The notes under the pieces were generated by a model, which was not told the origin of the DNA, made no database searches, and saw nothing but the letters and a program-made list of their open reading frames with translations. From NCBI GenBank assembly GCA_035948615.1, contig DASZJB010000038.1:1-38679 (forward strand): 38,679 nt of DNA, written 5' to 3'. Numbering within the stretch: position 1 is the first letter of the stretch; each line of letters begins with the position of its first letter. A program made the position numbers and the translations under genes. Positions 1,519-32,150 of the stretch are shown one piece after another. The stretch comes from Candidatus Dormiibacterota bacterium (GTDB taxonomy: Bacteria; Chloroflexota; Dormibacteria; Aeolococcales; Aeolococcaceae).

Positions 1519-1618
1519 TGCGCACTCCATACACAAATCCGTATACTTTTCTGGAAGCCGGATCCGTCCGGTGCGGCCGGAGGGGCGACCGTCAAAGCAG
1601 GATCTTTGGAGGTAGCCC
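1519..1618 (+). promoter_or_regulatory. promoter box plus structured 5' leader, copy A (paralogous to 5150..5257)
   Basis: ATACACAAATCCGTATA (1529-1545) contains a -10 TATACT (1542-1547). A hairpin CCGGA-TCCG-TCCGG lies at 1558-1571. The conserved 18-mer CGGCCGGAGGGGCGACCG is at 1574-1591. Segment 1585-1597 (GCGACCGTCAAAG) can pair with 1604-1616 (CTTTGGAGGTAGC), covering the SD GGAGG. ATG is at 1619. Confidence 0.6.
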
Positions 1619-2005: not shown

Positions 2006-3868
<1,863 letters not shown>

Positions 3869-3892: not shown

Positions 3893-4018
3893 TCAGCGCT
3901 CGGCGGGCGCCTGCGCTGCAGTCTGGGCGGCCGCTTTCTTTGCCGCCTTGGCGATTGCGGCAGCCTTCGGCTTCTTACCCTGGCGCTTCGGGGCTCCCCG
4001 AGACTTCTCTCCGGCCAC
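3893..4018 (-). CDS. 41-aa Lys/Ala-rich basic small protein, hypothetical
   Basis: Below the ORF-track size cutoff. Hand translation gives GTG-AGEKSRGAPKRQGKKPKAAAIAKAAKKAAAQTAAQAPAER-TGA. GAGGAGAG lies 5 nt upstream of the GTG at 4018. Confidence 0.4.
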   Translation of the reverse strand: MAGEKSRGAPKRQGKKPKAAAIAKAAKKAAAQTAAQAPAER

Positions 4019-5149: not shown

Positions 5150-5257
5150 TTGACAGATATACACAAATCCGTATAGTCTGCTGAGTGTCCGGGTGCTCAC
5201 CCGGAACGGCCGGAGGGGCGACCGATCCCGAATCACGTCTATCGGAGGTCGTCCATC
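5150..5257 (+). promoter_or_regulatory. near-consensus sigma-70 type promoter plus structured 5' leader, copy B
   Basis: TTGACA (5150-5155), a 16-nt spacer, then TATAGT (5172-5177). The 17-mer ATACACAAATCCGTATA is at 5159-5175. A hairpin CCGGGT-GCTC-ACCCGG lies at 5189-5204. The 18-mer CGGCCGGAGGGGCGACCG is at 5207-5224. Segment 5219-5226 can pair with 5241-5251 (ATCGGAGGTCG), covering the SD. GTG start at 5258. Confidence 0.65.
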
Positions 5258-5497
5258 GTGACTCAGCTCAAGGCGCTCATCGACAACTGGATCCTCATCG
5301 CGCAAGGCCTGCTCGCGAGCGTCGGCGCGCTCGCATTCCTCATCGCGTTCATGTACAAGATCGTGGCGGTCGATCCATCCAGTGTTGCGCAGGCGAAGAA
5401 GTGGATCGGCCGCATCGTCTTCGGCACCATCGGTGTCGAGGTGGCGGGAACGCTGACCCACGCGTTGATCGCCAGTGTCCCAGCGACGATCCACTGA
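5258..5497 (+). CDS. TrbC/VirB2-like two-TM mini-pilin family protein
   Basis: 79 aa. Two hydrophobic helices ([23 protein letters not shown] and [19 protein letters not shown]) flank a short loop, [14 protein letters not shown]. This layout resembles the 'pilin' of actinobacterial T4SS-type conjugative elements, which have a GDPxxVxxAK loop. The family assignment is from memory and was not searched. Confidence 0.6.
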
Positions 5498-5506
5498 GCG
5501 CGCCTG

Positions 5507-6448
5507 ATGCAATCGGTTCCGGGGATCGTGCAGGGGATCCGCGATCCCCTCGGCACGATCCTCCAGCTGCTGACCGGCGTGCTGTCGCACTTCATCGCGA
5601 CCGCGCGAACCGACATCAACGCCGAGCTGAGCCGCTATCTCTTCACAACCGTCGACCCGATCGGATCCGGCATTCGCCCTTTGACGGCAAACCCGGCCAT
5701 CGCGCACCTGAACGGGGCGCTCGCGCTGGTCGCCGACGTGCTCGTCGGCGCGGTCCTGCTGTACGCATCGCTCCGGAGCATCTTCGAGCACTCGATCCAC
5801 GCGCGCTACGCGCTCCACCTGGTGATCCCGCGCGTCATGGCGGCGATCGTCATGGTGCACGGGTCGATGTACTTCATTCAGATGGCGATTGATCTCAACA
5901 ACGCGATCGGCGGGGTGGCGCAGTCGCTCGGCGGGCCGCTGACCATCGACACACTCCCCTGGTCGGGGTCGATGAGCGCCGCGACCGTGTCGATCATCCA
6001 GGGTTCACAGGATCTGTTCCACGCGGTCTTCGCGCTCGGCGTGGTCGTGGCCGTCGTGATTCTGATGCTCTCGTACGTGATCCGAACCGCGATGCTCGAC
6101 ATACTCGTAGTGCTGGCGCCCCTCGCGGCGTTGTGCTCGGCGCTGCCCGACACGCGCCGCTATGCATATACCTGGCTGCGTCTGTTCATGGTCGCGGTGT
6201 TCATGCAGGCCGTGCAGCTGATCATCCTCAGGGTCGCGACGGCGGTCGGGTTCGGCGCCGGGAGCGGCATCGCCGAGAGCCTGTTCGCGCTGGCGATCCT
6301 CTGGATCGTGCTCAAGGTCCCGGGAACGCTCCACGCCGCCACGCATGTCGAGACCAACGCACACACCGCGATGCGCCACGTCCGGCGGTCGATGCACAAG
6401 GCGATGGCCCCCGCACACCATGTGGTGCGCCATCGCACGGCGTTGTGA
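5507..6448 (+). CDS. polytopic membrane protein, TrbL/VirB6-like
   Basis: 313 aa with about 6-7 hydrophobic spans and a basic His/Arg-rich C-terminal tail. It starts 9 nt after the pilin-like gene. Position and topology match TrbL/VirB6-type proteins, but sequence homology was not verified. Confidence 0.55.
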   Translation: MQSVPGIVQGIRDPLGTILQLLTGVLSHFIATARTDINAELSRYLFTTVDPIGSGIRPLTANPAIAHLNGALALVADVLVGAVLLYASLRSIFEHSIHARYALHLVIPRVMAAIVMVHGSMYFIQMAIDLNNAIGGVAQSLGGPLTIDTLPWSGSMSAATVSIIQGSQDLFHAVFALGVVVAVVILMLSYVIRTAMLDILVVLAPLAALCSALPDTRRYAYTWLRLFMVAVFMQAVQLIILRVATAVGFGAGSGIAESLFALAILWIVLKVPGTLHAATHVETNAHTAMRHVRRSMHKAMAPAHHVVRHRTAL

Positions 6449-6954
6449 TCCGCGCCGCTGCCGCGGTCACGGTGCTGCTCGCTCTGGGATTGTGCGGGGG
6501 AACGGCGTTCGCCAGCGGTGCCGCGGGGATGAACTCCACCGGGGTGGGTTTCGCCAAACCGCTGGCGCACTCGTGGGTGTCGCAGGGATTCGGATGCACC
6601 AGCTTTGCCTTCGAACCCGTGGATCGTGCGTGCCCCGGCGGCCACTGGCACTCGGGGATCGACCTGGCGGCGGCGCGGGGCACGCCCGTGATGGCGACGC
6701 TCCCGGGCATCGCCACGGTCATCGTGTCGGCCACGGGATACGGCTTGCACGTGGTCATCGATCACGGCGGCGGTCTCAGCAGCCTGTACGGCCACCTCGA
6801 CTCCGTGCTGGTCGCGAGCGGCGACGTTGTGGTCCGAGGTCAGCTGATCGGTACCGTCGGGTCAAGTGGCAACGCGACCGGGCCGCACCTGCACTTCGAG
6901 ATCCGGCGAGATGGCATCGCCGAGGATCCACGAATGGACCTCTCGCTCCCGTGA
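6445..6954 (+). CDS. secreted M23 family metallopeptidase (peptidoglycan endopeptidase)
   Basis: GTG at 6445 overlaps the upstream TGA (GTGA). The signal peptide is VIRAAAAVTVLLALGLCGGTAFASG. M23 motifs present are HWHSGIDL (HxxxD) and GPHLHFE (HxH). Confidence 0.85.
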   Translation: MIRAAAAVTVLLALGLCGGTAFASGAAGMNSTGVGFAKPLAHSWVSQGFGCTSFAFEPVDRACPGGHWHSGIDLAAARGTPVMATLPGIATVIVSATGYGLHVVIDHGGGLSSLYGHLDSVLVASGDVVVRGQLIGTVGSSGNATGPHLHFEIRRDGIAEDPRMDLSLP

Positions 6955-13214: not shown

Positions 13215-13290
13215 CCCAGGGTAGCCAAGTGGTCAAGGCAGCGGTCTGTAAAACCGTGTACCGATGGTTCGACTCCATCCCCTGGGACCA
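13215..13290 (+). tRNA. tRNA with anticodon GTA (Tyr by anticodon), class I architecture, encoded CCA
   Basis: Hand-folded cloverleaf. Acceptor CCCAGGG/CCCTGGG, U8, D arm GCC-AAGTGGTCAA-GGC. Anticodon stem GCGGT/ACCGT with loop CTGTAAA. 5-nt variable loop GTACC. T arm GATGG-TTCGACT-CCATC, A73, CCA. Confidence 0.85.
13249..13288 (+). repeat. direct repeat copy 1 (3' half of the tRNA)
   Basis: TAAAACCGTGTACCGATGGTTCGACTCCATCCCCTGGGAC matches 14256-14295 at 39 of 40 positions. Confidence 0.9.
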
Positions 13291-32078: not shown

Positions 32079-32150
32079 TACCCGCACGGGGAGTCGAACC
32101 CCGGTTACCACCTTGAAAGGGTGGTGTCCTGACCGCTAGACGATGCGGGC
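32079..32150 (-). tRNA. tRNA-Glu (anticodon TTC)
   Basis: The minus strand reads GCCCGCATCGTCTAGCGGTCAGGACACCACCCTTTCAAGGTGGTAACCGGGGTTCGACTCCCCGTGCGGGTA. It folds as a canonical cloverleaf with anticodon loop CTTTCAA. CCA is not encoded. Confidence 0.9.

Follow-up and report, generated by a model that had tools for sequence, protein, structure and literature searches.

A probable spacer operator and a predicted bistable leader precede a secreted-protein gene and a pilin-like operon in Dormibacterota

The window analysed here, i.e. the whole stretch of 38,679 nucleotides from contig DASZJB010000038.1 of a Candidatus Dormiibacterota bacterium, carries two transcription units on the forward strand whose promoter and leader regions share two exactly repeated blocks and are hereafter referred to as copy A and copy B. 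Copy B precedes an operon (5258-6954, + strand) of three genes in conserved order, which encode a 79-residue T4SS-pilin-like protein (5258-5497; matched weakly over its full length by Pfam T4SS_pilin at E = 0.012, which misses the curated cut-off), a TrbL/VirB6-like membrane protein (5507-6448; Pfam TrbL_4, 2.8e-09, passing the cut-off) and an M23 peptidase (6445-6954; Pfam Peptidase_M23, 1e-30). Copy A precedes the gene of a 120-residue signal-peptide protein without a family match (1619-1981, + strand), designated sec120. The typA/bipA gene (2006-3868) begins 24 nt after sec120 and no terminator-like site was found between 1981 and 2006 on the + strand; to judge from this arrangement, typA may be co-transcribed with sec120 behind the copy A module in the window's clade. 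Downstream of typA, a terminator-like hairpin lies at 3915-3931.

The pilin-like, TrbL-like and M23 genes constitute a phylum-conserved chromosomal set adjoining phosphatidylinositol-synthesis genes, in which the 79-residue protein changes much less than the TrbL-like protein (compared over the leading 60-70 residues of each orthologue). A type IV secretion or conjugation cluster was considered and rejected, since no secretion ATPase (VirB4/VirD4) was present within 10 kb on either side in ten related contigs (L001-L010) and the T4SS_pilin match falls below the cut-off; from its gene content the set does not look like a conjugation system.

A scan of the window located the 17-mer ATACACAAATCCGTATA exactly at 1529-1545 and 5159-5175, and the 18-mer CGGCCGGAGGGGCGACCG exactly at 1574-1591 and 5207-5224, in agreement with the preliminary description of this DNA, which had reported identity at 17 of 17 positions for the former and an identical leader element for the latter. 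No further match to the 17-mer was found in the window even with three mismatches allowed (0.01 expected), and the exactness of both repeats is far beyond chance. The stretch between the two blocks differs between the copies in sequence as well as in length (28 nt versus 31 nt); hence, the copies are not the product of a plain recent duplication.

The 17-mer belongs to the promoter. In copy B, a -35 hexamer TTGACA lies at 5150-5155 (+ strand), as detected by a consensus scan, with TTGACA or TTGACG at the same position in most orthologous promoters. The promoter proposed earlier, TTGACA-N16-TATAGT, is indeed present at 5150-5177, but alignment of the promoters across the phylum sets the -10 hexamer at TAGTCT (5174-5179, + strand; TAnnnT, 18-nt spacer), and the overlapping TATAGT (5172-5177, 16-nt spacer) is an alternative confined to the window's clade. 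In all clades TAnnnT is found 17-18 nt past the -35 hexamer, the distance being 18 nt in 58 of 83 promoters. The -10 hexamer of copy A is TACTTT (1544-1549) or TATACT (1542-1547), and as no -35 hexamer is recognisable there, the copy A promoter is less certain than that of copy B.

The core of the 17-mer is an inverted repeat, TACAC-AAATCC-GTATA, at 5160-5175 in copy B (exact repetition, phylum conservation) and at 1530-1545 in copy A (exact repetition, promoter alignment), neither being assigned to a strand. The core conserved across the phylum reads TACAC-N6-GTGTA, with the TACAC and GTGTA half-sites kept, an A/T-rich centre that varies, and a GTATA half-site in the window's clade. The repeat is always confined between the -35 (TTGACA/G) and the TAnnnT -10; its distance from the former is 0-4 nt and differs between clades, and in several clades, that of the window included, it extends over the first two bases of the latter. 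Changes in the half-sites, e.g. from GTGTA to GTATA, occur without compensation, which is expected of protein-binding half-sites and not of an RNA stem. Thus, the conserved inverted repeat overlaps the core promoter and lacks covariation of the RNA type, as in operator-controlled promoters generally, and no such site was found elsewhere in the window. It is probably a DNA operator, in keeping with the earlier suggestion for the 17-mer, although TACAC-N6-GT(G/A)TA fits better than the palindrome TATAC-N8-GTATA proposed at that time.

An inverted repeat likewise fills the DNA between -35 and -10 in promoters bound by MerR-family activators and by spacer-binding repressors. MerR promoters typically have a spacer of 19-20 bp, whereas that of the Dormibacterota module is 17-18 bp; a MerR-type promoter was therefore rejected, the repeat lying in the spacer but the spacer not being over-long. 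No conserved regulator gene was apparent beside the locus in a clustering of neighbouring ORFs that was swamped by overlapping spurious ORFs in this G+C-rich DNA.

For comparison, 80 orthologous TrbL loci from different species were fetched, and further copies of the module were found in metagenomes as well as in about 80 related genomes. Searches with covariance models placed every complete module before a pilin-like gene or a sec120 homologue. In many species a signal-peptide protein of about 120 residues is encoded directly upstream of the pilin gene; sec120 and the pilin gene each have their own module in five such loci (L053, L054, L055, L060 and L079), while in L066, L077 and L082 the pilin gene lacks a separate leader and forms one operon with sec120, which precedes it. 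The earlier proposal of a candidate new cis-regulatory RNA and regulon thus holds with respect to the module, which is real, but the 'regulon' comprises, as far as sampled, no more than one gene set in two transcription units, which are united in a single operon in some species.

A metagenome scan with the 18-mer returned at least 134 exact matches. Eight among those listed have the full architecture (six before pilin genes, two before sec120), and the other 126 listed are chance occurrences, mostly in coding sequences of unrelated G+C-rich organisms, together with tandem 12-mers and terminator-like palindromes; such a listing bounds the size of the regulon only weakly. Among viral contigs, 11 matches to the 18-mer were found, none with the module. 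The tandem arrays, seen in unrelated metagenome contigs (L095:~5300-5420, L109:1-110, L119 and L120), are built of a 12-nt unit GGAGGGGCG(A/G)CC in which the core of the 18-mer happens to occur; as neither a promoter nor a Shine-Dalgarno (SD) context accompanies them, the arrays appear unrelated to the module.

Several loci show rearranged modules. In L017, promoter, leader and the first ~25 pilin codons recur in degenerate form (240-400) about 2.4 kb upstream of the intact copy (2640-2991), with a metal-repressor-like gene and a permease in between; the layout resembles that of an island which entered the pilin unit at its 5' end and is flanked by the module as a direct repeat. L074 likewise has a duplicated leader and a truncated pilin (~790-990 versus 2650-2990). 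In L081 (2576-2720), the module SD drives an ORF of 19 residues that ends just before the pilin start codon, and in L080 (~2570-2720) it also precedes a short ORF ending just upstream of the pilin start; these short ORFs could be sec120 remnants or leader peptides.

The leader is about 70-75 nt long. Promoter geometry predicts a transcript start a few nucleotides before its first hairpin and upstream of the 18-mer. This 5'-proximal hairpin, P1, is present in both copies and differs in sequence between them, as had been reported: in copy B (5188-5205, + strand) it has seven pairs, UCCGGGU/ACCCGGA, with a GCUC loop, and in copy A (1557-1572, + strand; 33.8 bits with the P1+P2 covariance model) it is GCCGGA/UCCGGU with a UCCG loop. 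Across the phylum the sequence of P1 varies freely while its pairing is kept, five of its seven pairs having changed on both sides and 96% of cells being paired, in comparison with at most 48% in a slid-partner control of the whole P1+P2 structure. The covariation of P1, as read from these alignments, is strong. The P1 loop and the linker between P1 and the 18-mer vary in both sequence and length.

The 18-mer, on the contrary, varies little or not at all between the leaders of about 80 species, although their TrbL-like proteins share only 37-98% identity with that of the window, and it takes part in two helices. In the first, its positions 10-17 pair with GGUCGCCC, comprising the last two G residues of the SD and the spacer, and the helix often extends to positions 7-9. 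In copy B, positions 7-17 (5213-5223) double as the anti-SD strand, the segment from the SD GGAGG (5244-5248) up to the start codon occupies 5244-5257 (+ strand), and GGUCGUCC (5247-5254) pairs with positions 10-17 in the minimum-free-energy (MFE) fold. In copy A, the anti-SD strand (1583-1590) of the 18-mer (1574-1591, + strand) pairs with GGUAGCCC (1611-1618) with one G.A mismatch, the SD GGAGG (1608-1612) and spacer spanning 1608-1618 (+ strand), as placed by the MFE fold and by alignment to the anti-SD model. Pairing of the 3' part of the 18-mer with the SD had been proposed from the two copies; it belongs to the MFE fold of both leaders and is supported by covariation. Among 66 distinct leaders, 90.7% of the cells of the anti-SD helix are paired, as against at most 61.5% when the partners are slid, in covariance-model alignments that lean towards the modelled structure. 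Pair 15 is A-U in 58 of these leaders, G-C in seven and G.U in one, and pair 13 is C-G in 63, U-A in two and U.G in one; in the sec120 leader at L054:1130, U15 pairs with A. Of the five variant classes, four have the best or near-best duplex energy for the cognate 18-mer/SD pair; the fifth has a single member.

In the second helix, the 18-mer itself forms a hairpin, P2 (CGGCCG-GAGGGG-CGACCG; 5207-5224, + strand, in copy B), with a C4.A15 mismatch. The sequence is exact in most species, and compensatory changes occur at three pairs: G6-C13 is replaced by A6-U13 in five leaders, A6 never being found alongside C13; C4.A15 is replaced by U4-A15, C4-G15 or U4.G15; and C1-G18 by A1-U18 in L080 and L081. 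Positions 4 and 6, which lie outside the anti-SD helix, change only in step with positions 15 and 13. This covariation stems from few lineages, perhaps from two to four independent events, and the common P2 variant carries the C.A mismatch, with the closing pair broken in several species. RNAalifold prefers a slightly different mini-hairpin (pairs 1-14, 2-13, 4-11 and 5-10); since all changes in it are one-sided and compatible with wobble pairing, and since A1 and G1 variants break it, P2 was preferred to it. As positions 13-17 belong to P2 as well as to the anti-SD helix, the two exclude each other, and both carry compensatory changes; the covariation of position 13 with two partners is the signature of two alternative structures. 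Covariation across the phylum, the absence of which, like that of further copies, would have spoken against the earlier proposal, thus supports both the 5' hairpin and the SD-sequestering helix, and the comparative evidence describes a bistable leader, in which the 18-mer is itself an alternative hairpin.

It is very improbable that both blocks are DNA operators, the 18-mer (CGGCCG-N6-CGRCCG) being a second protein-binding site: it is a near-palindrome with symmetric variants such as CGGTCA-N6-TGACCG, but covariation links its positions 13 and 15 to the SD flank, which lies 25-45 nt downstream, it has many G.U cells that are meaningful only in RNA and a fixed orientation to the gene, and standard and variant 18-mers occur within one genome (L055 and L060), which argues against co-evolution with a DNA-binding protein; the DNA palindrome was rejected on these grounds. 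Loop changes are also seen among the 18-mers. In a more divergent strain (L007:2833-2926), copy A reads CTACACAGATCTGTATA, with the loop changed to GTGGGG, while copy B on the same contig is unchanged, and the sec120 leader at L079:2216 has the GTGGGG loop too.

The SD-sequestered fold, hereafter referred to as OFF, is the MFE structure of both leaders, with predicted energies of -31.0 versus -22.2 kcal/mol with P2 enforced in copy B, and -29.8 versus -20.6 kcal/mol in copy A. It is thus predicted to be about 9 kcal/mol more stable than P2-containing folds, P2 alone being weak (-4.4 kcal/mol). Between 10 and 45 C, the four G residues of the SD are predicted in silico to be unpaired with a probability of at most 0.06, i.e. 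to be at least 94% paired. According to these values, the default state of the leader is off and the leader does not act as a thermometer. RNA thermometers such as ROSE and fourU likewise hold the SD inside a hairpin of the 5' UTR, whereas the present helix has 8-11 G+C-rich pairs, and a thermometer was rejected since the SD helix is predicted to stay closed over this range. The folds are not significantly more stable than those of shuffled sequences (z = -0.28 and -1.44), G+C-rich shuffles folding equally well; hence, the support for the structure is comparative, from covariation, and not thermodynamic. An intrinsic terminator or attenuator was also rejected, since neither leader has a terminator-like site and no U tract follows the hairpins, the sequences 3' of P1 and P2 being AAC and GAUC/GUCA, respectively.

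These observations are best accommodated by a Dormibacterota-specific module with two layers of control, placed before the sec120 and the pilin-like/TrbL-like/M23 units, a reading that we consider probable. At the DNA level, a dimeric protein would recognise TACAC-N6-GT(G/A)TA in the promoter spacer and act most likely as a repressor that blocks RNA polymerase. In the transcript, P1 would be a stable element, probably a protector of the 5' end and a folding insulator. In the OFF state, the loop and 3' arm of the 18-mer (GAGGGGCGACC) would pair with GGUCGCCCNUC, which consists of the last two G residues of the SD plus the spacer that leads up to the start codon, and would bury the ribosome-binding site; in the ON state, the 18-mer would fold as the weak hairpin P2 and free the SD. 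As OFF is so much the more stable, translation would need a factor that captures the 18-mer or P2. The favoured trigger is an RNA-binding protein that would recognise the invariant GAGGGG loop; this loop and the stem sequence are nearly unchanged in two leaders and throughout the phylum, which is consistent with a trans-acting factor recognising them. Other possible triggers are an sRNA, a ligand, or a 30S subunit on standby at the GGAGG of the 18-mer, which resembles an SD. With regard to CsrA/RsmA, both the common 18-mer and the SD contain a GGA motif, which the A6 variants of the 18-mer (CAGAGGGG) lack.

A static leader appears rather unlikely. P1 would then stabilise the mRNA, the anti-SD helix would keep translation of membrane and secreted proteins constitutively low, and P2 would be incidental. 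The large, temperature-insensitive energetic preference for OFF over any P2 fold is as this reading predicts, P2 is weak and mismatched in most species, and no trigger was found. Against it, positions 4 and 6, although outside the OFF helix, change only so as to create or keep pairing with 15 and 13, and the A1-U18 pair of L080 and L081 is again a P2 change; moreover, the helix is near-invariant though free to drift by covariation, which suggests an additional constraint.

Activation by an sRNA of the anti-antisense kind, or a ribosome-standby leader, is somewhat less likely still. A trans-acting RNA or the anti-SD of the 30S subunit would hold the inhibitory strand, or P2 would provide a brief co-transcriptional window for loading. 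An inhibitory strand kept exact in two leaders is what the seed of a shared trans-acting RNA would impose; the 18-mer contains GGAGG at positions 6-10 (GAGG in variants), largely within the P2 loop; and the dominance of OFF at equilibrium also agrees with it. However, a search of 0.77 Mb of Dormibacterota DNA yielded no credible locus complementary to the inhibitory strand, a weak test as it covers only the neighbourhood of the module locus, and the unpaired P2 loop would offer a toehold to the SD strand, so that P2 should be a poor kinetic trap. Two known systems invite comparison. The rpoS leader of E. coli is activated through an anti-antisense mechanism by DsrA, RprA and ArcZ, and leaders of this type resemble the module in that an upstream strand of the 5' UTR blocks the ribosome-binding region and relief comes from capture of that strand; in the module, by contrast, the inhibitory strand can form a hairpin of its own (P2), and the leader is short (~75 nt) and duplicated before two units. 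In the maturation-gene leader of phage MS2, an upstream complementary sequence and a kinetic trap operate; there too the SD is sequestered at equilibrium and a small 5' hairpin competes, but the module belongs to a cellular mRNA and its exposed P2 loop, a likely toehold, makes kinetic trapping doubtful.

A small-molecule riboswitch, in which P1 and P2 would form a compact aptamer and a ligand would stabilise P2 and release the SD, is improbable. As in translational riboswitch platforms and riboregulators, the helices exclude one another and the SD is buried in one of them; the architecture is bistable and phylum-conserved, the purine-rich loop is invariant and the stems are conserved in sequence. 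The element is absent from Rfam and would constitute a new class, in line with the earlier remark that the leader matches no known riboswitch class: at the gathering score, Rfam 15 matched only two tRNA genes in the whole window, and for both leaders at E<=10 it gave only chance matches to snoRNA and lncRNA models. The two tRNA genes lie at 13215-13287 (+ strand) and 32079-32150 (- strand). Against this reading, the leader has only two simple hairpins, with a P1 loop and linker that vary, and no conserved element was found in it beyond P1 and P2, i.e. no junction, pseudoknot or internal-loop core that could serve as a multi-helix ligand pocket. Nor do the regulated genes hint at a ligand, none of them being of a metabolic or transport kind.

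Returning to the two-layer module, a more ambitious version of it holds that the P1-P2 leader represents a new class of ligand- or protein-sensing riboregulators which, together with its dedicated operator, would gate a phylum-wide, non-conjugative envelope apparatus derived from a type IV secretion system and comprising the pilin-like protein, the VirB6-like protein, the M23 hydrolase and the secreted partner. This version is tentative and is given a low likelihood.

The module is real and previously undescribed, and our literature search retrieved no report linking Dormibacterota to riboswitches or to TrbL. Sequestration of the SD with a competing hairpin is a well-known principle, and the result is for that reason useful rather than surprising. 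The ~75-nt bistable leader is well suited to become a new Rfam family and makes clear mutational predictions, and the 16-bp candidate operator is a testable element. Dormibacterota are uncultured bacteria that are abundant in peat, permafrost and Antarctic soils. In these organisms, the module links a secreted protein of about 120 residues to a highly conserved pilin-like/TrbL-like/M23 set without a secretion ATPase nearby, which suggests a dedicated envelope machine under tight control at two levels.
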